A DNA stretch of 64,000 nucleotides from Chloroflexota bacterium. Its GTDB lineage: Bacteria > Chloroflexota > Dehalococcoidia > UBA2247 > RBG-13-53-26. The stretch covers positions 8,041-72,040 of the forward strand of contig PUNJ01000117.1 of NCBI GenBank assembly GCA_003551705.1. Reading direction: 5' to 3'. Below, in pieces: positions 6,696-60,922 of this stretch; position 1 is the first letter of the stretch; every line of letters begins with the position of its first letter. The position numbers were made by a program, and so were the translations under genes. The notes under the pieces were generated by a model, which saw only the letters and a list, made by a program, of their open reading frames with translations, searched no databases and was not told the DNA's origin.

Positions 6696-6737
6696 GGAAT
6701 AACACTCTCCAGGTCTCCAGTTTTGCAGAAGCGCCTG

Positions 6738-8753: not shown

Positions 8754-8792
8754 ACGTGTAAATATTATAGCGGAGGCTATAGCGATAGGGGG

Positions 8793-17094: not shown

Positions 17095-17101
17095 TGTTGT
17101 C

Positions 17102-18268: not shown

Positions 18269-18281
18269 AGAAACGCCCCTG

Positions 18282-18731: not shown

Positions 18732-18754
18732 CTAAGCACCCTCATCTGGAAAAT

Positions 18755-20416: not shown

Positions 20417-20435
20417 CAGACCTCCAGTCCTGCTG

Positions 20436-21125: not shown

Positions 21126-21162
21126 CGATAAACTTCACCCCGCTTCAGGTTCTAGCCAGAGA

Positions 21163-22362: not shown

Positions 22363-22371
22363 CTGACAACC

Positions 22372-23394: not shown

Positions 23395-23410
23395 TATGAA
23401 TTCGGTCTAC

Positions 23411-24295: not shown

Positions 24296-25437
24296 GACTT
24301 CACCTCACCACTTATCTTCAGTAACTGCTCTGTAGCCGTCTCCATGTCGGGGTATACCCCAATCCCGGCCTCGCTCAATAACCTGGCACCTTCCTCTTCA
24401 TTCGTACCCATCATTCGCACTGCAACCGGCTTCTTCTCCCATGAGGCTTCCAGACCTTGAATGATTCCGTCCGCAACGATATCACATCGCGTGATCCCGC
24501 CCAGAATATTCACCAGGACTCCCTTCACCTCAGGCTTTGACATGACAAGGAGCAAGCCGTTCTTGATGACGTCCACCTTAGCCCCGCCTCCAATATCCAG
24601 AAAATTCGCAGCCCGCCCCCCATAGAGATTCACAAGGTCCATGGTAGCCATTACCAGTCCAGCGCCGTTGCCTACAATACCGATGTTTCCATCCAGTTCT
24701 ACATAAGCCAGACCCTGCCGCCTCGCCACGGCTTCTCTGGGAGTATCTTCAGTCCGCACCATGTCCCGTTGTTCGAATTCAGGGTGGCGAAAAATCGCGT
24801 TCTCATCAATGATTATCCTGGCATCGGCAGCTACGAATGCACCGGTAGACGTCTTTGCCAGGGGATTGAGCTCGACCAATTCAGCATCAAAGTCCATGGC
24901 CACCGTATACAGAGTGGCGGCAACCTTGGCAAAGCCTTCAGTATCACCCTCCGACAGCCCGAACTCCTTAACCATGTTTCTTGCCGCAGCAACATCAAAG
25001 CCCGTTGTGGGTTCCACCCAGTGGCGCAATATCTTATCCGGTGTGGCGCTGGCCACCTCTTCGATGTCCACACCGCCGCTCGTAGACAGCAAAACGACGA
25101 ACTTTCGCTCTTGCCGGTCGACGGTGACCGACGCATAGAGCTGGTCTACCAGGTCAAGCTTCTCTTCTATGAGTACAATCTCTACGGGGATATCCTTGAT
25201 CCTGCTGCCAACAAGTTTCGCCGCAGCATCTCCAGCAGCCTGTGGACTATCGGCAAAAACTATACCGCCTGCCTTGCCTCTGCCCGAGACTTGCACTTGG
25301 GCTTTTATGACTACAGGCCCACCAAAGCCGGCGGCTATGGTCTCCGCTTCGGCAGGATCCATGGTCACCCGCCCGGCCGGTATACCCAGCCCGTACCTTC
25401 CCAGTATTTCTTTGGCTTCATATTCAAAAAGCTTCAA
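24292..25437 (-). CDS. sucC: succinyl-CoA synthetase beta subunit (ATP-grasp)
   Basis: 381 aa; MKLFEYEAKEIL start, ATP-grasp and ligase-CoA domains; 4-nt overlap with sucD. Confidence 0.9.
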   Translation of the reverse strand: MKLFEYEAKEILGRYGLGIPAGRVTMDPAEAETIAAGFGGPVVIKAQVQVSGRGKAGGIVFADSPQAAGDAAAKLVGSRIKDIPVEIVLIEEKLDLVDQLYASVTVDRQERKFVVLLSTSGGVDIEEVASATPDKILRHWVEPTTGFDVAAARNMVKEFGLSEGDTEGFAKVAATLYTVAMDFDAELVELNPLAKTSTGAFVAADARIIIDENAIFRHPEFEQRDMVRTEDTPREAVARRQGLAYVELDGNIGIVGNGAGLVMATMDLVNLYGGRAANFLDIGGGAKVDVIKNGLLLVMSKPEVKGVLVNILGGITRCDIVADGIIQGLEASWEKKPVAVRMMGTNEEEGARLLSEAGIGVYPDMETATEQLLKISGEVKS

Positions 25438-25455
25438 AAACTTCCTCCCGCGGAG

Positions 25456-25860
25456 CTATTGTGGTTCGGTCAACTCAATGAGCGCTCTCGTTCCCTTGGG
25501 ATGCAGGAAGGCTATCTTGTTGTTCCCCGCACCCATACGCGACTTCTTGTCTATGAGCGGTACTCCTCCCTTGTCCAGGTTTTCCAGCACGCTATCTATA
25601 TTGTCTACCTGTAACGCCAGGTGATGCAGACCCTCGCCTCTGGAAGCTATGAACTTGCCGATGGGTCCATCTGGGTCAGTAGTTTCCAGTAACTCTATTC
25701 TGATATCGCCGACAGGAATGACAGCGACACGGACTTTCTGGTCTGATACTATTTCAATATCCTCCACTTTCAAGCCAAGCCATTCCACGTAGGGTTTCAT
25801 GGCTTCCTCAATGCTGTTTACGGCAATCCCGATATGGTTAACCTTCTTTACCACGGCCAT
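25456..25860 (-). CDS. methylmalonyl-CoA epimerase (VOC/glyoxalase fold)
   Basis: 134 aa; HIGIAV...HHLALQV metal-binding pattern; in the mutase operon. Confidence 0.75.
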
Positions 25861-26251
25861 TCTCCTTCATCTGCTTCTCGATATAGGCTGTAATGTCTGC
25901 CAGGCGTGTGCCCGGTCCAAACACCCTGGATAGGCCGGCCTCTTGGAGGACTGGGATATCCTTCTCGGGGATGATGCCTCCGCCGACTACAAGGATGTGT
26001 CCAGCGCCCTTGCTGCGCAGTAGTTCCACAACCCTGGGGAAAAGGGTCATGTGAGCCCCCGACAGGCAACTGAGCCCGACAACATCGACGTCTTCCTGTA
26101 CCGCTGCATCGCATATCTGTTCGGGAGTCAGCCGAAGGCCAAGATAGACCACTTCCATACCCGCATCGCGTAGGCCCTGCGCAATGACCTTCGCGCCTCT
26201 GTCATGTCCGTCCAAGCCTGGTTTGGCCACTAGTACTCGAATCTTGTCCAT
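25838..26251 (-). CDS. methylmalonyl-CoA mutase, B12-binding small subunit
   Basis: 137 aa; DGHDRGAKV (DxHxxG cobalamin His-ligand motif), Rossmann-like. Confidence 0.85.
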
Positions 26252-26266
26252 GACTTTGATCCCTTC

Positions 26267-27871
26267 CTATAAAATGTTCGGTTCCCGGTATTCTCCGAAT
26301 ACACTCCTGAGTACATCGCTTATTTCGCCCACAGTTGCATACGCCTTCGCTGCCTCAATGAGGGCCGGCATCAGGTTTTGATCACTTTGAGACGTCTCGC
26401 GCACACCTTCCAGTGCTCTGCCGACCTTCTCCTTGTCTCTGCCCTTTCTCAGCTTCTCAAGGCGCTCCGCTTGTTTCTGCTCGATTTCCCGTCCAATCTC
26501 GAGTATCTTGCGTGGTTCAGCCTCAGCTACCTGGTATTTGTTTACTCCAACAATGACCTGATCACCGGAGTCCACCGCTTTCTGAAAACTGTACGAGGAG
26601 CTGGCGATTTCCCTCTGGATATAGCCCTTTTCAATGGCCTTGAGCGCGCCCCCCAGGCGGTCGACCTCCTCAATGTATTCCAGAATCTTCGTTTCCAGAG
26701 CGTTAGTCAGAGACTCAACAAAGAAAGACCCGCCAAGCGGGTCCACCGTATCCGCTACACCACTCTCCTCAGCAATGATCTGTTGTGTCCTCAAGGCCAC
26801 CTGTACCGCTTCCTCGGTGGGCAAAGCCAGTGCTTCGTCATACGAGTTGGTATGTAGTGACTGGCAGCCACCCAGTACTGCTGCGAGCGACTGTATCGTG
26901 ACCCTGACGATGTTGTTCAGCGGCTGCTGTGCAGTGAGTGTGAAGCCATCTGTCTGTACGTGATAACGGAGGGATTGCGACCTGGTATTGGTGCTCCCGA
27001 AACGTTCCTTCATGATCCTGGCCCAGAGACGGCGCAGAGCCCTGTACTTTGCCACCTCTTCCAGCAGATTGGTATAAGCCGCGAAGAAGAATGAGAACCT
27101 CGATGCAAAGGAATCGACTTCCATGCCCTTGGCAATCATGGCCTCTACATAGGCTATGCCATTAGCCAGCGTGAAAGCGGCTTCCTGGGCGGCAGTGGCA
27201 CCGGCCTCCCTCATATGATAACCACTGATACTTATCGAGTTCCACTTGGGCAATTCGTTGGCACAGAAGGAGCATATATCAGTTACAAGCCTCATGGAAG
27301 GTTCCGGGCCAAAGATGTAGGTATTGCGAGCAATATACTCCTTGAGAATGTCATTTTGAACGGTGCCCTCGAGCTTGTTCCGATCAGCCCCCTGCTTCTC
27401 CGCCGCTACAATGTACATGGCGAGAATGATGGGCGCTGTGGCGTTTATGGTCATGGATGTACTGACATCTGCCAGAGGGATGCCCTCCCACAGCCGCTCC
27501 ATATCCTCAAGTGAGTCTACAATTACGCCGCATCTGCCGACCTCGCCTGCCGCCAGCGGATGGTCCGAGTCATACCCCTCCTGGGTAGGTAGCTGGAAGG
27601 CCACGCTGAACCCAGTCTGCCCCTGCTTGTACAGGTACTTGAATCTCTCGTTTGTTTCCTCAACCGTGCCGAAGCCGGCATACTGCCGCATGGTCCAGAG
27701 CCTGCCTCGATAACCAGTGGGCATGATATGCCGGGTGAAGGGGTACTCGCCTGGCAATCCCAGGTCCTCATCCCGAACAGCGGCATCGGCTGCAGTGTAG
27801 ACCCTCTTAACGGGCAAACCATCTACGGTCGTTTTGAATTCGGTCTTTCTTTCGCTGCTCTTATCCGCCAT
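26267..27871 (-). CDS. methylmalonyl-CoA mutase, large catalytic (TIM-barrel) subunit; split archaeal-type
   Basis: 534 aa; [48 protein letters not shown]; start ATG at 27869..27871 with GGAAGAGG SD. Confidence 0.9.
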
Positions 27872-37418: not shown

Positions 37419-38207
37419 ATGCAAGAGGAAGTCGAAAGAGTAACCGCATTGCGGTACACCGGTACGGATGTGCAGGAGATTGACGAATCGGTCGTGAAGG
37501 AATACCCCTTCACTATCTCGGTCAATAACCAGGAACTCGTGACGTTGCTCTGTTCGCCCACCTATCTCAAGTTTCTGGCTGTCGGGTTTCTGGTTTCGGA
37601 AGGTATCATCAAGAGCAAGGACGATATCAAGAAGGTGGTAGTGGACGAGAGACTGGGAATAGCCTGGGTGCAGACCACTGACCAGGAGGCTGTGCAGCCG
37701 CTGATGTTATCCAAGAGATTGATCACTTCCGGTTGCGGTCGTGGAGCATCCTTCTACAATCCGGATGATGCCCAAGCTTTCACCATTATTGAGTCAAAGC
37801 TGACGGTCAAGCCAGAAGATGTTTTCTCCCTTGTGCAGGAGTTTCAGCATTACTCCGAAATCTACAAGACCACTCACGGCGTTCACAGCGCGGCTTTGTG
37901 CGACAATAAGAAGATATTGCTTTTTCGGGATGACATTGGCAGGCATAACGCCATTGACAAAATAGTTGGAGAATGCCTTCTTAACGACCTGTCGACGCAA
38001 GACCGCATGATTGTTGTCAGCGGACGCATATCCTCTGAGATGGCTGTCAAAGTTGCAAAGAGAAATATACCAGTCCTGGTATCCATTTCGGCGCCGACAG
38101 ACCTCGGTATCCGCCTCGCCAATGAGTTTGGCCTTACCCTGATTGGTTTTGTCAGGCCCAAGAGGATGAACGTGTATGCAGGTAGGGAAAGAATAGCAGG
38201 ACTATGA
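37419..38207 (+). CDS. fdhD: FdhD-type sulfurtransferase (formate dehydrogenase accessory protein family)
   Basis: 262 aa; catalytic loop TSGCGRGAS; no formate dehydrogenase gene in this window. Confidence 0.8.
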   Translation: MQEEVERVTALRYTGTDVQEIDESVVKEYPFTISVNNQELVTLLCSPTYLKFLAVGFLVSEGIIKSKDDIKKVVVDERLGIAWVQTTDQEAVQPLMLSKRLITSGCGRGASFYNPDDAQAFTIIESKLTVKPEDVFSLVQEFQHYSEIYKTTHGVHSAALCDNKKILLFRDDIGRHNAIDKIVGECLLNDLSTQDRMIVVSGRISSEMAVKVAKRNIPVLVSISAPTDLGIRLANEFGLTLIGFVRPKRMNVYAGRERIAGL

Positions 38208-46018: not shown

Positions 46019-46705
46019 CTATTGATGTACCGCTTCTATTTCGCCCTTCAGGTAAGCCTCGTTCACCTGCTTTGCCGGGTGTAACTGTACGCTATAGTCC
46101 TTCAGCGGGGCCAGTTCTTCCATCTTGTCCAAACGTCCCTGCTTGGACAACCGCTCGTATATCAGTGCCCACGCACAATCCCTCTCCGTGCTGGTCTCAC
46201 ACTTGCCCTCTTTCTGACCGCCGCACTGGCCGTTGACCAGACCCTTTGGACACCTGGCAATAGGACAGATGCCGCCATAATCGGCAAGCAGGCAATTACC
46301 GCAGGCACGGCACCGCTCCGACCAGACACCCTCCGCCTCCGCAACCCCTATGAAACGCGTATTCAGTCCGGGGACCACCGGCTGCGTCTCCAGCATATCA
46401 GCCACCAGTTGCACGCCCGCGCCACAGGCCAGAGAGAGGACCGCCTCGACACCCCTGGCCTTCTCCAGAATAGGCTCGATATACTCTCTGTCGCACTGCC
46501 GCTGTATGGTGGCTTCTTCAATCTTCACATTGCCATTCTTCAACTGCGCGGCCATCCTTAGCTGCGAGGCCAGCAGTTCCACTTCCTTCTCGCCGCCAGC
46601 CATGCATACGCTGACACACGTCCCGCATCCAAGGACCAGCAGACTCTTGTAGTCCTTGACCCGCTCCTGGATTTCTTCGAAAGGTTTTCTCTCACCAACA
46701 ATCAT
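46019..46705 (-). CDS. MetV-like Cys-rich protein (MTHFR C-terminal zinc-ribbon domain family) with extra N-terminal CGTC module
   Basis: 228 aa; CRACGNCLLADYGGICPIARCPKGLVNGQCGG...GKCE matches the MetV / PF12225 pattern; 4-nt overlap with the mvhD stop. Confidence 0.55.
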   Translation of the reverse strand: MIVGERKPFEEIQERVKDYKSLLVLGCGTCVSVCMAGGEKEVELLASQLRMAAQLKNGNVKIEEATIQRQCDREYIEPILEKARGVEAVLSLACGAGVQLVADMLETQPVVPGLNTRFIGVAEAEGVWSERCRACGNCLLADYGGICPIARCPKGLVNGQCGGQKEGKCETSTERDCAWALIYERLSKQGRLDKMEELAPLKDYSVQLHPAKQVNEAYLKGEIEAVHQ

Positions 46706-47127
46706 CCTGCTTTTTCCTTTCTCAAGGGATTAGGCCCCAGATCGCGGGCCCTCTGGGTCATCTCGTTGCAGGCGGACGCAAACATCGGCGCATCAGACGC
46801 CCCCAGGTTATACATCTCTACTCTGTCAGGTTCCAGGCCGATCTCCTCGAGGAGTTTCTTGGCTTGCTTGACTCTTTTCTTGGCTCTCAAATTTCCTTCC
46901 AGGAAATGACAATCACCTTCCTCTCAGCCGGCGACGAAGGCGGCATCCGCCCCTTCGGCCAGAGCCTGAAGGAGGTGTATGGTATCAACTTTGCCCGTAC
47001 ACTCGAGCTTCACAATCCGCACATTCGGCGAATACTCCATGCGCATGGAGCCTGCCAGGTCGGCTGCCGAATAGGCACAATAGTGACAGCAGAAAGCCAC
47101 CACCTTTGGTTCGAAAGGCTCACCCAC
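46702..47127 (-). CDS. mvhD: MvhD (methyl-viologen-reducing hydrogenase delta subunit family) with in-frame TGA at 46924..46926: predicted selenoprotein
   Basis: ORFs 46924..47127 (MGEPFEPKVVAFCCHYCAYSAADLAG...EGADAAFVAG) and 46702..46890 are contiguous in one frame through a single TGA. Read-through gives ...AAFVAG-U-EEGDCHFLEGNLRAKKRVKQAKKLLEEIGLEPDRVEMYNLGASDAPMF..., i.e. the MvhD VAGC-x-GDCHY motif with Sec at the first Cys. Confidence 0.75.
46891..46907 (-). promoter_or_regulatory. candidate bacterial SECIS hairpin 16 nt downstream of the mvhD UGA
   Basis: RNA: AUUUCC-UGGAA-GGAAAU, a perfect 6-bp stem with 5-nt loop carrying GG; position fits bacterial SECIS spacing. Confidence 0.4.
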
Positions 47128-47147
47128 GGTACTCTCCTTTCTCTTCG

Positions 47148-50100
47148 CTAGACATACAAAACACAGGTCTTGGCCAGTATCTGTTCATCGTCGTAGTGCT
47201 GCAGGCGTATAGCCTTGCGCGGGCAGGCGCTGGTACAGATGCCACACCCACGACATGCCGCCTGTTCGATATCCGCAAACCCGTCAGCGTTAATGGTCGG
47301 GACATTGAAGGGGCAGGAGCGAACACAGGTCAGACAGGCTACGCATCTATCCTGGTCCACCACCGAGACAATCCCCCCTACCATCAGATACGGTTGCGCC
47401 AGTATCGTCGCCGCCCTGGATACCGCACCCTTGGCCTGTGCAATGGACTCAGCTATGGTCTTCGGAGCGTGTGCCATGCCGCATAGATACATGCCTTCAT
47501 TAATGAAGTCCAGGGGCCTGAGTTTCATATGTGCTTCCATGTAGAAGCCGTCCTGCGTCAAGGGCAGTTTCAATTTGCTGGCAAAGACGTGAGCATCCGG
47601 TTGAGGCCGGACCGCCGCACTCAGGACCACCAGGTCCGAAGGCAAAGAGATGCTCCTGCCCAGGACCGAATCATAAACACTTACCATCACCCGGTCACCC
47701 GATGCATCCACCTCCGGCTTCATGTCGTCTTCGAAGCGTATGAAAGTAACACCCTTATCCCTGGCCTCACGATACTTCAGTTCTTTCATACCATACGTGC
47801 GAATGTCACGGTACAGGATGTACACTTCGGCCTTCGCGTTGTCTTCTTTTATCTTGAGTGCATTGCCGATCGCCTGGCCGCAACAAACGCGGCTGCAATA
47901 CATGTTGTCCTTTTCACGTGAGCCTACACACTGGATCATCACCACCGAATTGAGGTCCTTCAGGTCGATGGCCTTCCTTACCAGCTTGTCTTCCAGGTCC
48001 AGTTGGGTTATGACCTTGTCCGATCGGTCAGCCGAATACTCGGACGGTCTGAATTCCACGCCGCCCGTAGCCAGTATCACAACACCGTGTTCAATATCGT
48101 GCAGTTCGCCTCCGGCAGTGGCGATGCGGGACACGTAGTTGCCCACATACCCGGAGAAGTCCTGTACTGTCGATTCCTTATACACCTGTATGCGGGGTTC
48201 CCGCTCTACCTCTGCAACCAGCGATTTGAGCAACTCATGCGGATCAGAACCATCAAGCGTGTAATGCAGGTTCTTCAAATTGCCGCCCAGCTCTTTCTCC
48301 CTTTCCACCAGAACGGCATCGAAACCCTGCGCCGCCAGCCCGAGGGCAGCCGTCATCCCAGCCGCCCCGCCACCTATCACCAGACCAGAGCGATGAATGC
48401 TTGCCCGAGACTGGTGCAGAGGTTTTAACGTAGCCGCACGCGCCACCGCCATTCGCACCAGGTCCTTTGATTTCTCCGTAGCCCGGTCAGGGAAGTGCGA
48501 ATGGACCCAGGAACACTGGTCCCTGATGTTTGCCATCTCAAAGAGGAACTTGTTGAGACCCGCCTCCTGTATCGTGTCCTGGAAAAGAGGTTCATGGGTA
48601 CGGGGACTGCAAGAAGCCACCACCACCCGGTTAAGGTTCTTCTCCTTGATTGCCTCAACGATCTTGATCTGGGTATCCGTCGAACATGTATAGAGATTCT
48701 CGTCTGCATGTACTACGTAGGGGAGGGTTTTCGCATACTCAGCCACGCCCGGTACATCCACAACCCTGGCGATATTAGAGCCGCAACGACAAACAAAAAC
48801 GCCTATTCGCGGTTCCTGCCCGTCGATACTGAGCTCCGGCGGGTACGCCTTCTCTGTAACCATGCTACCCCGGACCTGGGCAATGCCCTGAGATGCCAGG
48901 TGCGCAGCACCGCTGGCATTCATAACCGATTCCGGAATGTCCATTGGAGCATTGAAGGCGCCGGCCACGTACACTCCGGGGCGTGAAGTCACGTTGGGTT
49001 CAAACTCCTCAGTCCTGCAGAACCCGAACTGGTCCACATCCACAGCCAGCCGCTCCGCCAGTTTCTTGGTGCTGGCTGAAGGGACCAGCCCGATGGAAAG
49101 GACCACCATGTCGAATTCTTCAGAGCGGCGCCCTTCGTCAGTATCATATTCCATAACCAGATTATGGCTCTGCTGCAACTCCTTGACTCCGGAAACCAGG
49201 CCCCTCACATAGCGTATGCCGAACTTGTCCTTGGCCGACTCGAAGTATCGCTCGAAGCCCTTACCATAGGCCCGCATGTCGTTATAGAAGATGGTGGGCT
49301 CTATATCGGCGGCATGTTCCCTGGCGATGATGGCTTCTTTCGTGGCGTACATGCAGCAGACCGAGGAGCAATAGTCGCGGTCGCAGGTCTCATCCCTGGA
49401 ACCGACGCACTGTATCCAGGCTATCTTCACGGCATGCTTTCCGTCCGACGGCCTCAGTACCTGGCCCTGGTAGGGGCCTGAAGCGGACAGAATTCGCTCG
49501 AACTGCATACTGTTAATGACATTGGGCATGCGTCCGTAGCCGTATTCGTCCTTCAAAGCAGCATCGAATTCTTCAAAGCCGGGGGCCAGAATAACCGAGC
49601 CGACGTTCAGGTCGACCGTCTGTTCCAGCATGGTATGGTCTATGGCGTTGGCCTGGCAGGCTGCCACGCACTGGTAGCATTCGCTGCAGAGTCCACAGGC
49701 CAGACAACGTTCCGCCTCAGCCTTGGCCGCCTCATGGCTTAGCTCAAGCTCTACCTCCCGGAAGTCCCGCCTCCTTTCGGCAACCGGCAGGTGAGGAGCA
49801 TTGTGACGAGGCATCTTTTTCACGCCTTCCAGCGGCACCTCGACCGGCGTGAAGGTGCGCTCTCTGTCCAAAGCGATGTCCTCGCCCTTGAGATATCTGT
49901 CTATCGAAATGGCCGCCTCTTTGCCGGCCGCTATTGCCTGGATAACTGACGCCGGGCCGGATACACAGTCACCTCCAGCGAATATACCAGGCTTGTTTGT
50001 GGCCACGGTGACTGGATCGACGTTTACCGTCCCTTGCGGAGTGGTGGTAATACCCGCCTCTCTCCAGGGTGTCAGATCGCTCTGCTGTCCTATGGCAATA

Positions 50101-51581
50101 ATGACCACATCCGCATCCAGCGAACTCGTTATATCCGATGCAAACTCGGGATTGAAACGCCCATCAGCGTCAAACACACGTGTACAGGCTACGCACTCCA
50201 GGCCCGTAACGTTTCCCTTGCCACCCAGAACGCGCTTGGGCCCCAGAGAGCAATGCAGCTCGACGCCTTCCTCAATAGCAGCCTCTATCTCCCACTCGTG
50301 AGAAGGCATCTCCTGCCTCGACTCCAGACATACCACGTGTACTTCTGAGGCACCCAATCTGAGAGATGATCTGGCAACGTCTATGGCGACGTTTCCGCCA
50401 CCAACCACAACCACCTTCTTCCGGCTGAATGAATCGGCCGCCATCTTACCGGAGGCCGCGTCCCTCAAGAAGTCCACTCCAAACAGGACTCCGTCCAGGT
50501 CGATCCCCTCCAGTCCTAGTCGTCGGGACTGGGGAGCTCCAACACCAACAAAGACTGCTTCGTATTGTTCAGACAACTGGTCGACGGTCACATCGGAACC
50601 AACGCGTGTATTGAGTTTTACCTCAACACCCATCTGCAGGATACGGTCAATCTCGTATTTCACAACATCCCGGGGCAGGCGGTACTCAGGAATGCCTACG
50701 GACATCATACCGCCAAGCACTGGATTTGCCTCAAAAATGGTGGGTTCATAGCCGGACAGTGCCAGGAAGTAAGCTGCGCTGAGACCGGCAGGGCCGGACC
50801 CGACGATGGCGACCTTCCTTCCGTTCTTGGGCAATCCGGCTGGCAGGGTATCCTCGCCTCCTGCCTTGACCTCGTCCGCAACGTATCTCTTCAACTGGCA
50901 TATGGAGACCGCCTCGTCCACCTTGGTCCTTGAGCAGTCCGTCTCACAGGGATGCACGCATACCCTGCCGCATATGCCCGGCAGCGGGTTCTGCTCTCTA
51001 ATGAGGTCCAATGCTTCCTTGAACTTGCCTTGATATATCAGCGCCACATATCCCTGCACGCTTATGTGGGCCGGACAGGCTATCTTACAGGGAGATGTCC
51101 CCCGCTTGTCGATGGACATGGCGCTGGGTATGGCCTGCGGATAACGTTTAAAGATGGCCTTCCGAGTGGCCAACTCTTCCTCGAACTCGCTTGAAATGAT
51201 GACCGGACACACCTCAACGCAGTCACCACACGAACTGCACTTGGTCAGGTCAATGAAACGCGGCCTCTTACGGACCTGCGCCATGAAATTGCCTTCCTCA
51301 CCATCGAGCGACAGCACCTCGGCATTAGTGACTATCTCGATATTGGGATGCCTGCCAACCTCGATCAGTTTCGGAGAGATCATGCACATGGAGCAGTCGT
51401 TGGTGGGGAAGGTCTTGTCTAGCTGTGCCATCCTGCCGCCGATGGAGGTTGTCTCCTCGACAAGGTAGACCTTGAAACCGGAGCTGGCCAGGTCCAGGGC
51501 GGACTGCATGCCGCATATTCCGCCGCCCACAACCATGACAGCGCCCACTTTGTTGGAGTTCGGACTCTTTTCTATCTTCAT
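47148..51581 (-). CDS. HdrL-type giant heterodisulfide reductase A-like flavoprotein: HdrA module interrupted by a GltD/NfnB-like NAD(P)H:FAD oxidoreductase module, followed by a second HdrA module and ferredoxin domains (1477 aa)
   Basis: N-terminus VMVVGGGICGMQSALDLASSGFKVYLVEE (HdrA FAD fold). Residues ~170-560: CKIACPAHISVQGY...GICGRVCVHPCETDC then KVAIVGSGPAGLSAAYFLALSGYEPTIFE...VVVVGGGNVAIDVARS (GltD/NfnB-like). Thioredoxin-like CRCGSNIARVVD. Second FAD fold LVIGGGAAGMTAALGLAAQGFDAVLVERE. Terminal CVACLTCVRSCP / CRGCGICTSACP. No in-frame stop. Confidence 0.8.
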   Translation of the reverse strand: MKIEKSPNSNKVGAVMVVGGGICGMQSALDLASSGFKVYLVEETTSIGGRMAQLDKTFPTNDCSMCMISPKLIEVGRHPNIEIVTNAEVLSLDGEEGNFMAQVRKRPRFIDLTKCSSCGDCVEVCPVIISSEFEEELATRKAIFKRYPQAIPSAMSIDKRGTSPCKIACPAHISVQGYVALIYQGKFKEALDLIREQNPLPGICGRVCVHPCETDCSRTKVDEAVSICQLKRYVADEVKAGGEDTLPAGLPKNGRKVAIVGSGPAGLSAAYFLALSGYEPTIFEANPVLGGMMSVGIPEYRLPRDVVKYEIDRILQMGVEVKLNTRVGSDVTVDQLSEQYEAVFVGVGAPQSRRLGLEGIDLDGVLFGVDFLRDAASGKMAADSFSRKKVVVVGGGNVAIDVARSSLRLGASEVHVVCLESRQEMPSHEWEIEAAIEEGVELHCSLGPKRVLGGKGNVTGLECVACTRVFDADGRFNPEFASDITSSLDADVVIIAIGQQSDLTPWREAGITTTPQGTVNVDPVTVATNKPGIFAGGDCVSGPASVIQAIAAGKEAAISIDRYLKGEDIALDRERTFTPVEVPLEGVKKMPRHNAPHLPVAERRRDFREVELELSHEAAKAEAERCLACGLCSECYQCVAACQANAIDHTMLEQTVDLNVGSVILAPGFEEFDAALKDEYGYGRMPNVINSMQFERILSASGPYQGQVLRPSDGKHAVKIAWIQCVGSRDETCDRDYCSSVCCMYATKEAIIAREHAADIEPTIFYNDMRAYGKGFERYFESAKDKFGIRYVRGLVSGVKELQQSHNLVMEYDTDEGRRSEEFDMVVLSIGLVPSASTKKLAERLAVDVDQFGFCRTEEFEPNVTSRPGVYVAGAFNAPMDIPESVMNASGAAHLASQGIAQVRGSMVTEKAYPPELSIDGQEPRIGVFVCRCGSNIARVVDVPGVAEYAKTLPYVVHADENLYTCSTDTQIKIVEAIKEKNLNRVVVASCSPRTHEPLFQDTIQEAGLNKFLFEMANIRDQCSWVHSHFPDRATEKSKDLVRMAVARAATLKPLHQSRASIHRSGLVIGGGAAGMTAALGLAAQGFDAVLVEREKELGGNLKNLHYTLDGSDPHELLKSLVAEVEREPRIQVYKESTVQDFSGYVGNYVSRIATAGGELHDIEHGVVILATGGVEFRPSEYSADRSDKVITQLDLEDKLVRKAIDLKDLNSVVMIQCVGSREKDNMYCSRVCCGQAIGNALKIKEDNAKAEVYILYRDIRTYGMKELKYREARDKGVTFIRFEDDMKPEVDASGDRVMVSVYDSVLGRSISLPSDLVVLSAAVRPQPDAHVFASKLKLPLTQDGFYMEAHMKLRPLDFINEGMYLCGMAHAPKTIAESIAQAKGAVSRAATILAQPYLMVGGIVSVVDQDRCVACLTCVRSCPFNVPTINADGFADIEQAACRGCGICTSACPRKAIRLQHYDDEQILAKTCVLYV

Positions 51582-51596
51582 CGTCTCTACCCTGCC

Positions 51597-52448
51597 TTAA
51601 ATCAGTCCTTTTTGGCTCAACAGCGGCCTCGGGTCCACAATATGGCGGCGAAGCCATTTCTTGGCGGACGGGTGCTTGTAGGCTATTCCCATCAATTCGG
51701 TGAAGTAGAAGATCGGTATCCGGTATTCTTTTCCTGTCGCCTTTGAGATCTCTCCCTGCCTGCCATCCAGATTGGAAAGACACATGGGGCAGCCGGCAAC
51801 GATGCATTCCGCGCCTGCTTCCACAGCCGCATCCAGCAGCTTCACCATCAAGTCCCTGGCTATGTCGGGACGAGTCAATATCAGGCTGCCACCGCAACAA
51901 TCAGCCTTGTAAGACCATGGTCGTACATCGACTCCGAGGCAGGTCAGAAGGCTGTCCATGGACATGGGGTTCTCCGCGCTGGCGGCATCTGTGACCTTGG
52001 GCGGACGGGTAGTCAAACAGCCGTAATAGCATACCGCCTGCAGGTTTTCGAGAGGGACCTTGACCTTCGCCGATAACCGGTCCTCACCCAGGTCTTCCCA
52101 GAAGAAGTTGGCGACATGCTTGACCTTGAACTTTCCACCATAGCCATTGACACCATCAATCTTCTCCCCGGCAACCAGCTTCTTTTCGGCGACCTTAAGC
52201 CTCTGGAAGCACGCCGCACAGGGCACCACCAGGTCCAAGCCGGACTTGTCGGCAACAGCCAGGTTCCTGGCAGCAAGTGACAAGGCCAGTCTGTGATTCA
52301 ATGCATGTGCAGAAGACGCCCCGCAGCAATTCCAGTCCTTGAGCTCGCGCAGGTTGATATCCATAAGATGAGCAACACCTTCCAAGGACTCACTGTACTC
52401 CTTGGCCGTCCCTTCCAGTGAACATCCAGGATAATACGAAACTTCCAT
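51597..52448 (-). CDS. hdrB: heterodisulfide reductase subunit B (two CCG domains)
   Basis: 283 aa; MEVSYYPGCSLEG, NCCGASS and DCCGGSL. Confidence 0.85.
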   Translation of the reverse strand: MEVSYYPGCSLEGTAKEYSESLEGVAHLMDINLRELKDWNCCGASSAHALNHRLALSLAARNLAVADKSGLDLVVPCAACFQRLKVAEKKLVAGEKIDGVNGYGGKFKVKHVANFFWEDLGEDRLSAKVKVPLENLQAVCYYGCLTTRPPKVTDAASAENPMSMDSLLTCLGVDVRPWSYKADCCGGSLILTRPDIARDLMVKLLDAAVEAGAECIVAGCPMCLSNLDGRQGEISKATGKEYRIPIFYFTELMGIAYKHPSAKKWLRRHIVDPRPLLSQKGLI

Positions 52449-52450
52449 GA

Positions 52451-53023
52451 CTATCCTTTCAACTCGCTTGCTTTATAGAGTTGTTTGATATCGCTCTTAG
52501 CTTTCACACCGCTCGGTATGATCTTCACCTTCCCCTTTTTAAACATCGTAAGGCCAAAGTTGACCAGCTTGAACAAGCCGGCCCAGGACTCATTCTTGAA
52601 AGTGTAGGCCAAGATCATTTCACCCTCGTATACCCTGCCACGTTTCTTGATGGAGCCCAGAAAGGCTTTATGAAGGAGGGGGACACTCCGCTGGGCAGCC
52701 TCAATGTTCTCCTCGTACCCGATCTGCCTCAGGGTATCCATGACATGGGCGATCTGAATACCGTTGGGACATCTGGTACTGCAGGTCTCACAGGATGCAC
52801 ATATCCATATCGTACGACTCTTGAGCACTTCATCCTTAAGGCCGAACTGGATTTCGCGCATTAGCTTGTGAGGCGTGATATCCATGTAGGAAGCCAGCGG
52901 GCAACCGTTGGTGCATTTCATGCATTGGAAACACGCAGAGATGCTTTCACCGCTGAGGCTTTCCACTTTCTGGCGAAATGAGGATTGAGGCTCGAGGTTT
53001 GGCAATACTTCAACAGCAGTCAT
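52451..53023 (-). CDS. hdrC: heterodisulfide reductase subunit C (4Fe-4S dicluster)
   Basis: ORF 52451..53068; preferred start ATG 53021..53023 (MTAVEVL) with GAAGGTGGGAG SD; CFQCMKCTNGCP and CASCETCSTRCP. Confidence 0.8.
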   Translation of the reverse strand: MTAVEVLPNLEPQSSFRQKVESLSGESISACFQCMKCTNGCPLASYMDITPHKLMREIQFGLKDEVLKSRTIWICASCETCSTRCPNGIQIAHVMDTLRQIGYEENIEAAQRSVPLLHKAFLGSIKKRGRVYEGEMILAYTFKNESWAGLFKLVNFGLTMFKKGKVKIIPSGVKAKSDIKQLYKASELKG

Positions 53024-53279
53024 ACTCCCACCTTCGCAGATTATTGGGATGAAAAAGTAAAAAAGCAACGCCTTCGATTACATGATTACGAAATGCGATT
53101 GCTTTGGTATGAACGTTCTATCCATTCTGGCCAATCTGACGATTCTTCGTATTACCCCCGATTACCAGCTTGTAAACACAATGCAACTTGGGAAATTTTA
53201 CCATGTTGGCCCTCTGTTTGTCCAAGCAGCGCCTTGTATACCAATATCGGGTATGTTATGATTTTGCCGAGGTTGAACA

Positions 53280-55075: not shown

Positions 55076-55453
55076 CCATTCCCCGGACTTCCAGGATATA
55101 GCATAGGGGATTTCTAATCCCCCATGCCCTTGTAAGCCGCAGATTCCCTGTTGGACCCGGGCTAAAGGAATGGGGGAACAGAGGATATCGAGTCTCGTGC
55201 TTCTTCTGAAGCGCACGGCCTCCATATTGAACGTGCAACCGGTATGAACCGACCCCATACTCCTCACCTGCCGCCCAGAAACCCTGGGTCGGGCTGATGA
55301 TCGCCGTTTCCATTTGTCTTGACTGCCTGTAATGGTGTAAAATCCCGTAGGGCGAGCGGGTTCTTCAGGCTTGGCAGCTGGATCCCCATGGACACCTGCG
55401 GCCCATTTCAACGCATTAGACCGTAAAGCTTGGTCAGAGGAGGGTAATACTGC

Positions 55454-56320
55454 ATGAGCCTCAAGGAGAAGCTTTCTACAGGCAAGTTCATAATCACCAC
55501 CGAGGTCGGTCCACCCAAAGGCATGGATATCCACGAAATGAAGGAGAATATCGAACTGCTAAAGGACCGCGTTGATGCTCTCAACTGCACGGACCAGCAG
55601 GCATCGGTCATGCGTTTGGGTTCTCTGGCCAGTTGCTATCTGGCCAAGCAATGGGGTATTGAACCGGTCTTTCAAGTGACTTGCCGGGATCGAAACCGCA
55701 TCGCCCTGCAGTCCGATTTGCTCAATGCAGCGGCTTTCGGCATTGAGAACGTATTGGCACTAACAGGCGATCACGTTTCCCTTGGCGATCATCCTGGAGC
55801 CAAGCCTGTCTTCGACCTCGACTCCGTGTCGCTCTTGCAAGCTATGAAGAGCCTTGAGGAAGGCCATGACCTGGCCGGTAAAGAGATTAAGGGTACTCCC
55901 AAGTTCTTCAAGGGAGCCGTCGTCACGCCCGGTGCGGAACCAGTGGAACCCCAAATCATGAAGATGCACAAGAAGATCAAAGCCGGGGCGCAGTTCTTCC
56001 AGACTCAGGCTATGTACGATTCACGCAAATTTGAAGAGTTCATGAAGATCGTCAAACCCACGGGGATGCCCGTATTGGTGGGTATCGTGGTACTCCGTTC
56101 CGCCGCCATGGCCCGCTTCATGAACAAGAACGTAGCGGGAATTCACGTGCCGGACAACCTTATTGAAGAAATGGACAAGGCAGAAAAGAAGGCCGCCAAG
56201 GGCATTGAAATTGCAGCTCGCCTGATCACGGAGATGAAGGATTCGTGCCAAGGCGTACATATCATGGCCATAGGAATGGAGGACAGGGTTCCGGCAATAC
56301 TTGATGCCGCCAAACTCTAG
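55454..56320 (+). CDS. metF: methylenetetrahydrofolate reductase, short acetogen/archaeal type
   Basis: 288 aa; FIITTEVGPPKG, TIM-barrel MTHFR pattern; strong SD GAGGAGGG; promoter TTGTCT-N18-TAAAAT about 105 nt upstream. Confidence 0.75.
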   Translation: MSLKEKLSTGKFIITTEVGPPKGMDIHEMKENIELLKDRVDALNCTDQQASVMRLGSLASCYLAKQWGIEPVFQVTCRDRNRIALQSDLLNAAAFGIENVLALTGDHVSLGDHPGAKPVFDLDSVSLLQAMKSLEEGHDLAGKEIKGTPKFFKGAVVTPGAEPVEPQIMKMHKKIKAGAQFFQTQAMYDSRKFEEFMKIVKPTGMPVLVGIVVLRSAAMARFMNKNVAGIHVPDNLIEEMDKAEKKAAKGIEIAARLITEMKDSCQGVHIMAIGMEDRVPAILDAAKL

Positions 56321-56344
56321 CTCACGATAAACTGCCATAACTGA

Positions 56345-56376
56345 GCCGGTTACGCCAGTAACCGGCTTTCTATATT
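56345..56376 (+). terminator. rho-independent terminator of metF
   Basis: GCCGGTTAC-GCCA-GTAACCGGC (perfect 9-bp stem) followed by TTTCTATATT. Confidence 0.75.
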
Positions 56377-56475: not shown

Positions 56476-57384
56476 ATGGCAACTGTGCGGACGTGGTTTC
56501 TGGAAACAAGACCGGCATTCCTGTTGCTGGTCCCAGTATGTATCCTCGTTGGAATAGCTACCGCAGTATACGAGTCAACGCCTGTTTCCTTTCACGTTTC
56601 CCACTTCTTGCTTGCTTTCCTGGGAGCGCTCCTGGCCCACATAGCCGTGAACGTATTAAATGACTATTTCGACTACCGTAGCGGCATTGACCTGAAGACG
56701 CAACGGACTCCCTTCAGCGGCGGCAGCGGCATCCTCCCTGCGGGACTTCTGCAACCCAACAAGGTCTTCCTGTTTGGGGTCTTCTGTCTCCTCGGGGTGG
56801 TCATGATAGGTGTCTACTTCATCTATCAGTTGGGATGGGCCATACTTCCCCTTGGGCTGGTAGGGGTATTGGTAGTGTATTTCTATACAACCCACCTCAC
56901 CAAGGACCCTGTACTATGTGCCATAGCGCCAGGCCTTGGATTCGGACCTTTGGTGGTACTGGGAGCACATTTCACCCAGGCTGGAGAGTATACACTGTCC
57001 GTGGCAATGGCATCCATGGTTCCCGGTTTTCTGGTCAGTAACCTGTTGCTCTTGAACCAGTTCCCAGATATCGAGGCCGATAAGGCAGGAGCCCGGCGTC
57101 ACATCCCCATACTCTTTGGGGTCCAAGCCAGCGCCAAAATCTACACTGCGTTCATAGTGGCCACCTATGCCTGGATTATACTCACTGTGTCTCTACAGAT
57201 ACTGCCTTGGACGGCCTTGCTTGGCATGGCCACCCTGCCGTTGGGCATCAAAGCAGTCAAGGGCGTCCTCCAGAACGCTGGCGAGCCCGGCAAGCTCATT
57301 CCATTCATGGGCGTCAACACTATGCTCACCTTGCTGACCCCGCTCCTTCTGGGTATAGGGATTTTGATCGGCCTGGTACTGTAG
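56476..57384 (+). CDS. menA: UbiA-family prenyltransferase, MenA-like (1,4-dihydroxy-2-naphthoate polyprenyltransferase)
   Basis: 302 aa; 8-9 TM helices; NDYFDYRSGID motif. Confidence 0.75.
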   Translation: MATVRTWFLETRPAFLLLVPVCILVGIATAVYESTPVSFHVSHFLLAFLGALLAHIAVNVLNDYFDYRSGIDLKTQRTPFSGGSGILPAGLLQPNKVFLFGVFCLLGVVMIGVYFIYQLGWAILPLGLVGVLVVYFYTTHLTKDPVLCAIAPGLGFGPLVVLGAHFTQAGEYTLSVAMASMVPGFLVSNLLLLNQFPDIEADKAGARRHIPILFGVQASAKIYTAFIVATYAWIILTVSLQILPWTALLGMATLPLGIKAVKGVLQNAGEPGKLIPFMGVNTMLTLLTPLLLGIGILIGLVL

Positions 57385-58669: not shown

Positions 58670-59719
58670 CTAAGACATTATGGCCCGCAGGGTATCTCTC
58701 AGGATGTAGTTGTTCTCAATCTGCGCTATCTCGGTCTGGCCCAGCGTCTTCCGGACAATTATCATTTCCCTGGGACGCACGTAATTGGCCATATACGGAG
58801 AATGGGTGGAGAAGATAATCTGACGGTTGGACCGCCTGAAGATGTCAACAATCAGATAGAGCAGGCGGGGATGTACCGAGTTTTCCGGTTCCTCCAGGCA
58901 CATGACGCCATTACCAGGCAAGGTAGCCGCAGTTATGTAGGCCAGGAACTTCAGGGTGCCATCCGACAGATGACTGCAATCGAAGTCCCTCTCGAAGCCC
59001 TGCTCCCTGACCGATAGAAGAGCCTTGCCATCCGACGTTAATGGAGTAAGGATATTCTCGACCTCAGGAATGCCCTGTCGCAGATAGTCCTCAATGCTAT
59101 CGAAGATCTCTGGAGTAGCATTTCGCAGTGATAGAAGTACCTGGATGAGATTCTTCCCCGTTCTGTCCAGTTCGGAAGCACGTCGGGCCTCACTCCTGCC
59201 TTTGATTTCTTGTGTCGAAGCAAAATGGTACGTCTTCCACGATGCAAGATAGGACTGGAACTCGCTAATCGAATTATAACCTTCCTTCCTGCCGTATATC
59301 GACACAGCAGAGACAGAGCTTGGCACCTCGGCCGGCGTAACTGCACCGGAATCATCCAGAACGCTTGTATTGCCCGCTGAGCGTTCAATCAGGCATACTC
59401 CGTTGACATACAACTCCTCTTCCTTGATATCGCTTCCACTGCATGCCAGGGAATATGTGCACCTCTTCCCATCAAGTGCAGCATCGACCATGAACTTCAT
59501 GCATACGCTTTCACCGCCAAAAACAACACTACTGTAATCGCCCCTCGGCAGTAGCGCTTCCGGGATGGATTTGTGGCCGGACTCCGACAAGAAAAGGAAG
59601 GCGTCCATGATGTTGCTCTTCCCACTGTTGTTGGGTCCCACCAGGACATTGAGCTTGCCTAAGTCCAGACTCAAGTCCTTCAGACTCTTATAGTTTTTAA
59701 CTTCAAATTTTTGAATCAT
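58670..59719 (-). CDS. orphan AAA_21/ABC-type ATPase (SMC-head-like; Abi/OLD-type ATPase module)
   Basis: 349 aa; Walker A VGPNNSGKSN, Walker B/D-loop MCLEEPENSVHP, STHSP. GC by eye slightly below neighbours. No nuclease partner gene adjacent. Confidence 0.7.
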   Translation of the reverse strand: MIQKFEVKNYKSLKDLSLDLGKLNVLVGPNNSGKSNIMDAFLFLSESGHKSIPEALLPRGDYSSVVFGGESVCMKFMVDAALDGKRCTYSLACSGSDIKEEELYVNGVCLIERSAGNTSVLDDSGAVTPAEVPSSVSAVSIYGRKEGYNSISEFQSYLASWKTYHFASTQEIKGRSEARRASELDRTGKNLIQVLLSLRNATPEIFDSIEDYLRQGIPEVENILTPLTSDGKALLSVREQGFERDFDCSHLSDGTLKFLAYITAATLPGNGVMCLEEPENSVHPRLLYLIVDIFRRSNRQIIFSTHSPYMANYVRPREMIIVRKTLGQTEIAQIENNYILRDTLRAIMS

Positions 59720-59806: not shown

Positions 59807-60922
59807 CTAGCTTTTGCGGTCCATGATAAAGAAGGCCATATTGACCAGCGACCTGTGGACGGCATTTTGAGGGAAGTCCGCCAAGGCCAAGCAGGCTTCA
59901 TTACAGAAACTGCGGGCAATGGCGCGGCATTCACTCATAATATTTGTCTCTGAAGCCATCTCAATCATCAGAGCGCATCCTTGCTCCCTGTCTCCCGCTA
60001 TCATCTCGGCAAGCCACGCATTCTCCGGGCGCTCCAATAACAGGATGCCAGGCAGGCTCATACTGTCCTTGGCCAGGTCGCCCTCAAAGTCAAGCATATC
60101 GTCCACAATCTGAAAGGCAATGCCAACATTGTGCCCGTATCTTCGGACGGATTCTACGGCTTCTTCAGGTGCGCCGCTCAAGATGGCTCCCGTCTGTGCC
60201 GACGATGAGAACAGGGATGCCGTCTTGTTACCAATCCTTCTGAAATAGTCCTCTTTGGTCATGTTGAAACGATGCAGCGATTCTTCGATTGCTCCGCTAC
60301 ACAACCTCATGATAGTCTGGGCAAGTATCTCCATGGCCTGGATATTTCGTACGCTCGGTACTTCATGTCCGGACGCTATCCACTTCTTGCCCAGTTCAGC
60401 CACCAGGCTCGCAGACGCCGCGCATAGATAGTCACCCAGAAGCACCGCATTTGTATCACCCCAGAGACTGTTTGCCGTGAGGCGGCCCCGGCGCAACAGA
60501 GACTTGTCCACGGTATCATCGTGCAGAAGTGTGGCTGTATGAAGCAATTCCACGGATGTAGCCATGGGTATCAGGAGGTCCAAGTTATAATCAAAAAACT
60601 TGCCGCATAACAGGGTAATGGCCGGCCTGATTCGCTTGCCCCCATTCTTGAGTACATGTCTTAACTGCTGCTCTATCTCCCCCGGTCCAGATGCAATAAC
60701 TCTATCCAGGTAAGCCTCCAGCTCTGCCAGTTCATCAACAACGGGTTGGTAAATAGTCTCCAGGTCTAACACAGCGTCCTCTGGAACTGTCGCAATACCA
60801 TCCATCGGGTCGGGCAAACTCATGCATAACTCCCCATCGTCGGAAGTGGCTTTCGCCGGCCATACGGGATCCGCCCCCATCTGTGTTGGCAATCTTCCCT
60901 CAAGTATTGTTCTATTTTCCAC
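59807..60922 (-). CDS. trans-polyprenyl diphosphate synthase (hepta/octaprenyl type, menaquinone side chain)
   Basis: 371-aa ORF (start may be internal, e.g. MSLPDPMDG); LLHDDTVD and FQIVDDMLD aspartate-rich motifs. Confidence 0.85.
   Translation of the reverse strand: MENRTILEGRLPTQMGADPVWPAKATSDDGELCMSLPDPMDGIATVPEDAVLDLETIYQPVVDELAELEAYLDRVIASGPGEIEQQLRHVLKNGGKRIRPAITLLCGKFFDYNLDLLIPMATSVELLHTATLLHDDTVDKSLLRRGRLTANSLWGDTNAVLLGDYLCAASASLVAELGKKWIASGHEVPSVRNIQAMEILAQTIMRLCSGAIEESLHRFNMTKEDYFRRIGNKTASLFSSSAQTGAILSGAPEEAVESVRRYGHNVGIAFQIVDDMLDFEGDLAKDSMSLPGILLLERPENAWLAEMIAGDREQGCALMIEMASETNIMSECRAIARSFCNEACLALADFPQNAVHRSLVNMAFFIMDRKS

Follow-up and report, generated by a model that had tools for sequence, protein, structure and literature searches.

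Which enzyme is encoded by the minus-strand gene cluster hdrC-hdrB-hdrA-mvhD-metV on contig PUNJ01000117.1 of a Chloroflexota bacterium (GenBank assembly GCA_003551705.1), and does it represent a new kind of system? The cluster lies in the 64-kb stretch of DNA analysed here (64,000 nucleotides, nt; hereafter the window), encodes an HdrA of 1477 amino acids (aa), and is accompanied by a short metF located 2.4 kb away. Judged by the domain content and domain order of the HdrA, the order of the five genes and their tight packing, the synteny with relatives and the orthology of MetF (74% identity), the cluster and the detached metF are very probably an orthologue of the Moorella type IV methylenetetrahydrofolate reductase (MTHFR), which consists of HdrC, HdrB, a long HdrA, MvhD (in the window a selenoprotein), MetV and MetF. 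The system is not categorically new, as the enzyme class, the domain architecture and the selenoprotein subunit are all known. A first-pass annotation of this DNA had proposed an NADH-linked Hdr/MetVF-type reductase of methylene-tetrahydrofolate (methylene-THF), a reading with which the domain searches and the orthologous synteny agree; it had overlooked the match to the published type IV MTHFR of M. thermoacetica and to the clusters of marine Chloroflexi (PMC9430772, PMC5736913).

Gene content and organization of the cluster

Relatives of the long HdrA were collected by scanning one genome per species, and at least 598 stretches were found to encode them; the best 80 (loci L001-L080) were examined for synteny by tblastn of the window proteins. 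The five genes of the cluster are minus-strand open reading frames (ORFs) with clear family assignments. The first, hdrC (52451..53023; 190 aa), encodes a Fer4_17/Fer4_8 dicluster protein which is 54-57% identical to the product of the hdrC found upstream of hdrB-hdrA in L001, L002, L003 and L005. Its start is most likely the ATG at 53023 rather than the TTG at 53068 chosen earlier, given the GGAGG Shine-Dalgarno sequence located 5 nt before this ATG and the resulting length of 190 aa, identical to that of the L001 orthologue. The product of hdrB (51597..52448; 283 aa) contains the CCG domain (PF02754) twice, aligns over its full length with the HdrB of PDB entry 5odc_B (E 2.1e-37) and retains both CX(n)CCGX(m)CXXC motifs, the non-cubane [4Fe-4S] sites of canonical HdrB. 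The HdrB also scores higher with the NCBIfam model of SdhE, the anchor subunit of 8-methylmenaquinol:fumarate reductase (171 bits), than with that of the coenzyme B-coenzyme M (CoB-CoM) HdrB (139.5 bits), both scores being below the cut-offs.

The long hdrA (47148..51581; 1477 aa), of the 'HdrL' or Moorella type, is an uninterrupted ORF. It is followed by mvhD (46702..47127; 141 aa), which matches PF02662 (FlpD/MvhD) with an E value of 4.7e-47 when an internal TGA is read as cysteine or selenocysteine (Sec). The bounds given earlier for this gene had to be corrected: it starts at the GTG at 47127, 20 nt past the hdrA stop and with AAAGGAGAG upstream, and ends with the stop at 46702. The last gene, metV (46019..46705; 228 aa), is genuine, as judged by its match to PF12225 (the MetV/MTHFR_C family; E 1.2e-35), and does not encode the unrelated zinc-ribbon protein that had been considered; its product is 63-75% identical to that of the gene between mvhD and metF in the Dehalococcoidales relatives (tblastn), and no solved structure was matched in a search of the PDB sequences. 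The short metF, found as annotated at 55454..56320 on the plus strand beyond recA-recX, encodes a protein of 288 aa (PF02219, E 2.5e-39) that reaches only 74 bits with the NAD(P)H-type model TIGR00676, far under its cut-off of 293.7 bits, and is therefore assigned to the MetV-dependent kind.

The genes are tightly packed, with 2 nt between hdrC and hdrB, 15 nt between hdrB and hdrA, 20 nt between hdrA and mvhD, and an overlap of 4 nt between mvhD and metV. By structure, hdrC-hdrB-hdrA-mvhD-metV thus forms one operon, as had been proposed. On one side nadE is convergent with metV, both stop codons being separated by 13 nt; on the other, recA and recX are divergent from hdrC and lie between the cluster and metF, which is situated on the opposite strand, 2.4 kb upstream of hdrC and about 650 nt past recX.

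Architecture and integrity of the long HdrA

The HdrA was dissected by phmmer against the PDB sequences, with the 659-aa chain 8rvu_a as the canonical reference; none of the solved structures in this search covers the protein as a whole. Pfam detects a Pyr_redox_2 domain (E 4.8e-60, best stretch aa 256-553), Fer4_20/DPD domain II (aa 162-240, E 4.4e-20), two more Rossmann folds for flavin adenine dinucleotide (FAD) at aa 15-46 and aa 1067-1113, and C-terminal Fer4 domains (aa 1407-1459). The first part of module 1 (aa 15-159; 51105..51539, minus strand, as are all parts below) matches 8rvu_a 154-298 and comprises an FAD Rossmann fold and the first cluster motif of the inserted ferredoxin sub-domain (CSSCGDCVEVCP). 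A GltD/NfnB-type unit follows (aa ~160-630; 49692..51104; PF14691 and PF07992), made up of an N-domain with two [4Fe-4S] clusters, an FAD fold (GSGPAG) and an NAD(P)H fold (GGGNVA). Residues 163-567, and up to ~645 in longer chains, match NfnB/GltD-type proteins, with E values of 1e-81 to 1e-112 over ~405 residues for the NfnB-like chains 9n5u_A, 9bov_A, 8oh5_C, 4ylf_B and 5jca_L. These matches bear out the earlier proposals that the middle segment is a pyridine-nucleotide oxidoreductase and that it is inserted in the first HdrA module.

The second part of module 1 (aa 631-~900; 48882..49691), of which aa 631-844 match 8rvu_a 300-514, completes the inserted ferredoxin sub-domain with its second half, adds the remainder of the fold resembling thioredoxin reductase (TrxR), and holds E695 and K748. 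Module 2 (aa 921-1471; 47169..48821) is colinear with canonical HdrA 10-648 apart from one large deletion: aa 922-1080 match 8rvu_a 10-168 and aa 1337-1471 match 515-648, and in a local alignment of aa 916-1477 it is the inserted ferredoxin sub-domain that is missing. It contains an N-terminal MvhD-like [4Fe-4S] domain (CRCGSN), a TrxR-like FAD domain and a C-terminal ferredoxin domain with two [4Fe-4S] clusters. According to these alignments, module 1 is the TrxR-like core of HdrA devoid of its N- and C-terminal domains, in which a complete GltD/NfnB unit placed between the counterparts of residues 298 and 300 divides the inserted ferredoxin sub-domain, and module 2 is a canonical HdrA minus the inserted ferredoxin sub-domain. 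The CRCGSNIARVVD segment (aa ~930, with the CRCGSN motif), previously taken for the point where module 1 resumes, in fact belongs to the N-terminal [4Fe-4S] domain of module 2 (canonical residues 10-168), and module 1 continues right behind the GltD unit, from aa ~631 onward (HdrA 300-514).

An ORF of this composition might arise by an error of assembly or annotation that joins two or three genes (HdrA, GltD, HdrA). This is vanishingly improbable, as the ORF is uninterrupted, its guanine-plus-cytosine (GC) content is uniform along the gene and no internal repeats of at least 27 nt are present. Moreover, the GltD unit sits inside a domain, at canonical residues 298/300, and is not appended at a gene boundary, and relatives colinear with the whole HdrA are encoded in over 120 independent protein clusters and in 80 genomes of many phyla. 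A protein search with the HdrA returned 7995 significant matches; the best 120 clusters (at 90% identity) that were inspected have 1420-1513 aa, cover 96-100% of the query and are, besides the query's own cluster at 100%, 60-72% identical to it, and the named proteins among them are from Chloroflexota or Dehalococcoidia metagenome-assembled genomes (MAGs). Likewise, the best 80 loci are colinear with the window HdrA from residue ~1-26 to ~1445-1477 at 48-66% identity, except that in L068 the contig ends at residue 1331 (the other 79 of the 80 reach ~1445-1477). The uniform GC content, the absence of repeats and the colinear full-length relatives rule out a mis-assembly or a repeat-mediated chimera, in agreement with the annotation of a single gene.

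The best 80 loci span Dehalococcoidales, Anaerolineae, Syntrophales/Smithella, Desulfomonilaceae, Acidobacteriota, Bacillota, Planctomycetes and one Thermoplasmatota MAG, so the earlier statement that this architecture occurs in 'a few' organisms overstated its rarity. In eight loci (L027, L046, L069, L071, L072, L074, L075 and L077; mostly Anaerolineae/Anaerolineales MAGs, with one Chloroflexia and one Thermoplasmatota MAG), the tblastn span of the long HdrA is ~6.3-6.6 kb (~4.7 kb in L075) instead of 4.4 kb, which suggests that an extra gene or module resembling HdrA directly precedes the long hdrA.

Gene neighbourhoods in the relatives

In 28 of the 80 loci metV directly follows mvhD, and all closest relatives are in this group. 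The metF is found right after metV in 20 of these 28 loci and elsewhere in the locus in four; two have no metF within more than 1.2 kb and two are interrupted by a contig end. The closest metV-linked relatives are 59-66% identical to the window in HdrA, 73-79% in MvhD and, where the match is complete, 63-75% in MetV. The partnership reaches as far as a Bacillota MAG (L039) with the order hdrA-mvhD-metV-metF, its HdrA being 51% identical to that of the window. The MetF of the window is 74% identical to the MetF encoded directly after metV in L001 and L005, which identifies the window metF as the orthologous partner of the cluster, detached by rearrangement. A similar detachment of metF is seen in L003.

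The identity of MvhD follows the same division. The window MvhD is 73-79% identical to that of the Dehalococcoidales-type loci L001-L008 and 53-79% identical across the loci with metV directly after mvhD, except for L071 and L077 (45-49%). No metV is found after mvhD in 37 of the 80 long-HdrA loci, and their MvhD is 36-46% identical to that of the window, with the Desulfomonilaceae-type loci L012, L024 and L059 as exceptions (60-61%). Among the loci lacking metV, those of the Syntrophales type show the order hdrA-mvhD-X-hdrC-hdrB and an MvhD 37-45% identical to the window protein. This arrangement, where X is a gene of ~1.1 kb and neither metV nor metF is present, was recorded in L013, L015, L017, L020, L021, L023, L026, L031, L035, L037, L038, L042 and L050 (Syntrophales, Smithella and 'Deltaproteobacteria').

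A selenocysteine codon in mvhD

The mvhD gene contains an in-frame UGA codon (TGA at 46924..46926) in the motif VAG-U-EEGDCH. Among the orthologues this column is occupied by Cys in 49 and by UGA in 22, and the coding sequence continues downstream. A hairpin resembling a selenocysteine insertion sequence (SECIS), AUUUCCU-GGA-AGGAAAU (46891..46907, minus strand), with a 7-bp stem and a GGA loop, is located 19-35 nt after the UGA. The perfect 7-bp stem and the GGA loop are kept in 11 of the 12 UGA-containing metV-linked orthologues and in none of the 15 that encode Cys. In six of these 11 (L054, L057, L058, L071, L074 and L077) the stem has the compensated form AUUACCU-GGA-AGGUAAU, where a U-A pair is exchanged for A-U by a Phe-to-Tyr codon change paired with a synonymous Gly change. 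Decoding of the UGA as Sec is thus supported by its alignment with Cys and by a conserved hairpin with a compensatory change, and on this comparative evidence MvhD is a well-supported candidate selenoprotein. Folding of the single sequence past the UGA gave an unexceptional stability (z = -0.69), and the 64-kb window contains no tRNA genes, hence no tRNA-Sec. MvhD proteins with Sec have been reported before (PMC2702500).

The sole UGA-containing metV-linked orthologue lacking the GGA-loop hairpin, L008, can form a stem of 6 bp around a UGUAU loop (CAUUUCC-UGUAU-GGAAAU), possibly a variant SECIS. Many mvhD genes of the hdrA-mvhD-X-hdrC-hdrB context also carry UGA at the same position, followed by another downstream hairpin (GCCACUAU...GGUGGC).

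Flavin sites and nucleotide pocket

Residue conservation was assessed in an alignment of 81 family members (the window and L001-L080). In module 1, E695 and K748 are invariant (81/81). In module 2, the position of E1197 is Glu in 78 of the 81 members; the corresponding Lys position, discussed below, is occupied by Gly1239 in the window and by Asn (L002, L011), Ser (L003), Glu (L007) or Arg (L008) in the nearest relatives with a Cys-Leu-Glu-type nucleotide pocket. By the published criterion, the full Glu/Lys signature (E695/K748), only module 1 is predicted to keep a bifurcation-type flavin site, as in Sporomusa ovata.

The nucleotide pocket of the GltD unit has Cys418-Leu419-Glu420 after the second Rossmann motif, where the five aligned structures all have Tyr-Arg-Arg. 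In dinucleotide folds, an acidic residue replacing an arginine pair favours NADH. The replacement of the NADPH-binding Tyr-Arg-Arg by Cys-Leu-Glu would accordingly favour NADH as the predicted substrate of this unit. In the alignment 49 members have Tyr-Arg-Arg and about 31 have Cys/Ser-Leu-Glu at residues 418-420. The pocket type does not track the linkage to metVF, since Tyr-Arg-Arg (L001, L005) and Cys-Leu-Glu (L002, L003, L007, L011) both occur in metVF-linked loci. Its variation among close relatives suggests repeated switching between NADPH and NADH.

Comparison with known systems

The hdrCBA-mvhD-metVF type of Moorella, traced to Mock et al. 2014 in the accounts of later papers (PMC9430772, PMC8760232, PMC13040438), is now named the type IV or Hdr-type MTHFR (PMC8760232, PMC13040438). 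Moth_1191-1196 encode the same six gene products as found here, and the order hdrC-hdrB-hdrA-mvhD-metV equals that of Moth_1196-1192 (PMC9430772, PMC5736913). The M. thermoacetica HdrA has 1487 aa (162.8 kDa); its N-terminal part comprises an additional ferredoxin domain together with a TrxR-like domain into which a GltD domain is inserted, and its C-terminal module (aa 922-1487) is without the inserted ferredoxin domain (PMC9430772, Kremp et al.). Compared by way of these published coordinates rather than by alignment, the window HdrA is of the same design, with ~1480 aa and a second module from aa ~921/922. The layout is near residue-for-residue, in that the Moorella pairs E696/K750 and E1204/K1246 (PMC9430772) find counterparts in E695/K748 and E1197. 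Unlike in Moorella, metF lies 2.4 kb upstream of hdrC and on the opposite strand, MvhD carries Sec, the Lys of module 2 is replaced by Gly1239, and the host is an uncultured Chloroflexota-like organism and not a Bacillota acetogen. In S. ovata, which is counted as type IV, the Glu/Lys pair is likewise present in one module only (PMC9430772), and co-localisation of all six genes is not taken as obligatory (PMC6085437).

Within the same phylum, marine Anaerolineae-type Chloroflexi (DscP3, An-B22, SM23_63) carry hdrABC-mvhD-metVF (Sewell et al. 2017, PMC5736913), and the metF_1 of DscP3, flanked by phoBR, is likewise not in sequence with metV. These Chloroflexi belong to subphylum I and have fused hdrB-hdrC, whereas in the window both genes are separate and the nearest relatives are labelled Dehalococcoidales/Dehalococcoidia; metV was stated to be unknown in other Chloroflexi clades (PMC5736913).

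The name HdrL comes from Desulfobacterium autotrophicum (PMC2702500), and the window shows the HdrL features, a fusion of HdrA with a GltD-like unit that binds NAD(P)H, and mvhD directly behind it. The HdrL of D. autotrophicum and Syntrophobacter fumaroxidans similarly combines a large HdrA with a glutamate-synthase-like NADH-binding unit, is followed by mvhD and is known with Sec forms (PMC2702500, PMC5947623). Those loci are, however, tied to dsrABC, to FdhB-like iron-sulfur (FeS) proteins or to further hdrABC, and that of the window to metV and metF. The type III HdrA of methane-metabolising archaea has a GltD unit within the ferredoxin sub-domain, predicted to let NADH enter in place of ferredoxin (PMC12054007). 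The insertion logic is the same, but the archaeal protein has a single HdrA module and is linked to mvhADG; the window HdrA joins a type III-like insertion with a second TrxR module, a 'type II' feature in the same study (PMC12054007). With the small NfnB/GltD subunit (4ylf_B, 5jca_L, 9n5u_A, 8oh5_C) it has in common both [4Fe-4S] motifs, the FAD fold and the NAD(P)H fold. Unlike NfnB, the unit is an internal domain of HdrA and has Cys-Leu-Glu in place of Tyr-Arg-Arg; Pfam detects no NfnA-like gene within the cluster. In canonical HdrABC-MvhAGD the HdrA has ~650 aa and an intact ferredoxin domain; the window HdrA has 1477 aa, with that sub-domain split in module 1 and absent in module 2. No hydrogenase or fdh catalytic genes occur within the cluster, and the scores of the window proteins with the NCBIfam HdrA and HdrB models are below the cut-offs.

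Proposed electron flow and alternative interpretations

By analogy with the work on Moorella and Sporomusa and with the structures of canonical HdrABC and NfnB, the FAD of the inserted GltD unit would oxidise NADH and hand the electrons on, through the two [4Fe-4S] clusters of this unit and then through the split ferredoxin sub-domain, to the module 1 FAD. From there, one branch would run through the FeS clusters of module 2, the [2Fe-2S] cluster of MvhD and MetV to the flavin of MetF, where methylene-THF would be reduced to methyl-THF. The other branch would lead through HdrC and HdrB to a second redox partner, in the case of bifurcation a low-potential acceptor or, in that of confurcation, a co-donor of the quinol type. 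In vivo the enzyme may work in the reductive, acetogenic direction or in the oxidation of methyl groups.

Several observations weigh against the identification as a type IV MTHFR. The Lys position of module 2 is Lys in 74 of the 81 family members and in Moorella (K1246), but Gly1239 in the window. The metF is not co-transcribed with the five clustered genes, being on the other strand behind recA-recX with promoter-like and terminator-like sites of its own. The genes fhs, folD and acs are found neither in the 64-kb window nor beside the cluster in L001 and L007, so that Wood-Ljungdahl genes in these regions do not anchor the physiological role. In addition, NADH-dependent reduction of methylene-THF has never been demonstrated even for Moorella, where the third substrate is unknown (PMC8760232, PMC13040438), and the comparison with Moorella is one of published coordinates.

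Two other functions can be envisaged for the cluster. One is a quinol-linked confurcating complex, in which NADH and reduced menaquinone would jointly serve as reductants of methylene-THF and HdrB/HdrC (or MvhD) would attach the complex to the membrane. A mechanism of this kind has recently been proposed for the type IV enzymes of S. ovata and M. thermoacetica (PMC9430772, PMC13040438), and it would fit the MenA-like UbiA prenyltransferase gene (56476..57384) immediately after metF, the gene of a long-chain polyprenyl diphosphate synthase at 59807..60922, and the higher score of HdrB with SdhE (171 bits) than with the CoB-CoM HdrB (139.5 bits). It nevertheless appears unlikely for the window: the position of the prenyltransferase gene beside metF was observed once, at this locus, and may be coincidental, every family score quoted is sub-threshold, the cluster encodes no membrane subunit, and the H2:methylene-THF assay of S. 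ovata showed no oxidation of NADH (PMC9430772). The other is a generic HdrL-type module that passes electrons from NAD(P)H to a disulfide or another acceptor (e.g. DsrC-like, a role put forward for sulfate reducers), with no dedicated folate link and with MetV as a mere FeS adaptor. Such a role is suggested by the HdrL of D. autotrophicum and S. fumaroxidans, linked to dsr genes or FeS proteins and not to metF (PMC2702500, PMC5947623), by the 37 of 80 long-HdrA loci in which metV does not follow mvhD, and by the detached metF of the window. That it applies here is highly improbable, since metV is inside the operon with a 4-nt overlap with mvhD, MvhD is far closer to that of the nearest metV-linked loci (73-79%, L001-L008) than to that of most metV-less loci (36-46%), the window MetF is orthologous to cluster-linked MetFs (74%), and no dsr genes are present in the 64-kb window.

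A Moorella-type MTHFR thus remains the preferred reading of the cluster. The loss of the module-2 Lys, the NADH-type pocket, the Sec in MvhD and the location of metF beside MenA-like and polyprenyl synthase genes might together reflect a type IV MTHFR remodelled in a Dehalococcoidia-like sub-lineage, a proposal that is itself quite improbable. If these changes were functionally connected, the enzyme would represent a naturally occurring variant with bifurcation or confurcation at only one flavin and with menaquinol as the third substrate, and if the proposal were true, genome comparisons in this lineage would offer a way to approach the partner of type IV MTHFRs. As it stands, the detached metF, Gly1239, the Cys-Leu-Glu pocket and the MenA-like neighbour are small deviations worth recording, and they do not constitute a new kind of system.

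Among the steps of the Wood-Ljungdahl pathway, the one catalysed by type IV MTHFR is the least well understood: twelve years after the enzyme was discovered, neither its third redox partner nor the part it plays in conserving energy has been established. The cluster extends the partnership of a Moorella-type long HdrA with MetVF into Dehalococcoidia-type Chloroflexota, where, in sediments and aquifers, it may support an acetogenic metabolism or one that oxidises methyl groups. The full-length architecture is shared by at least 80 species-level genomes of many phyla, in metV-linked as well as metV-less contexts, and the natural variation among them (Tyr-Arg-Arg versus Cys-Leu-Glu, module-2 Lys kept or lost, Sec versus Cys in MvhD) could steer the choice of enzymes for biochemistry and cryo-electron microscopy.

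Other features of the window

A promoter-like site is found upstream of hdrC (53195..53224, minus strand; TGGACA-18-TAAAAT with an extended -10 TG); it is the best consensus match of the region (10/12) and weak. Another precedes metF (55314..55343), and a terminator-like hairpin with an 11-bp stem follows metF (56343..56368, plus strand), both from the consensus scan only. Promoter-like sites are not enriched over shuffles, and the promoter and terminator scans give consensus-level hints only.

The UbiA-family prenyltransferase encoded directly after metF (plus strand) has as its best NCBIfam match the 1,4-dihydroxy-2-naphthoate polyprenyltransferases (MenA), with 131 bits and below the cut-offs, and the gene of the long-chain polyprenyl diphosphate synthase (minus strand) lies 2.4 kb past it. 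Both may be menaquinone genes, and their location near metF is perhaps coincidental.

A same-strand run of methylmalonyl-CoA/propionate-pathway genes extends over 16543..27871 (minus strand). It includes genes for fumarase beta, an acyl-CoA dehydrogenase, a ferredoxin, a flavoprotein of the fumarate reductase/succinate dehydrogenase type, a 2Fe-2S/4Fe-4S subunit and a LUD-domain FeS protein, as well as succinyl-CoA synthetase alpha and beta, methylmalonyl-CoA epimerase, a B12-binding subunit and methylmalonyl-CoA mutase. Inside this run, a second CCG-domain (HdrB/SdhE-like) protein is encoded at 22372..23394 (minus strand). A GlgE-type alpha-glucan pathway is represented at 3330..10934 (minus strand) by a TreS-maltokinase fusion (1121 aa), a GlgE maltosyltransferase and a glucan phosphorylase-like protein. 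The gene of an FdhD/NarQ-family sulfur carrier (37419..38207, plus strand) adjoins nadA and hints at a formate dehydrogenase elsewhere in the genome. Further sulfur and cofactor genes and UvrD are also encoded in the window. Between a radical-SAM gene and the polyprenyl synthase gene, an AAA_21/AAA_15 ATPase (AbiEii-like/OLD-family-like; 58670..59719, minus strand) is encoded, which may be related to defence.

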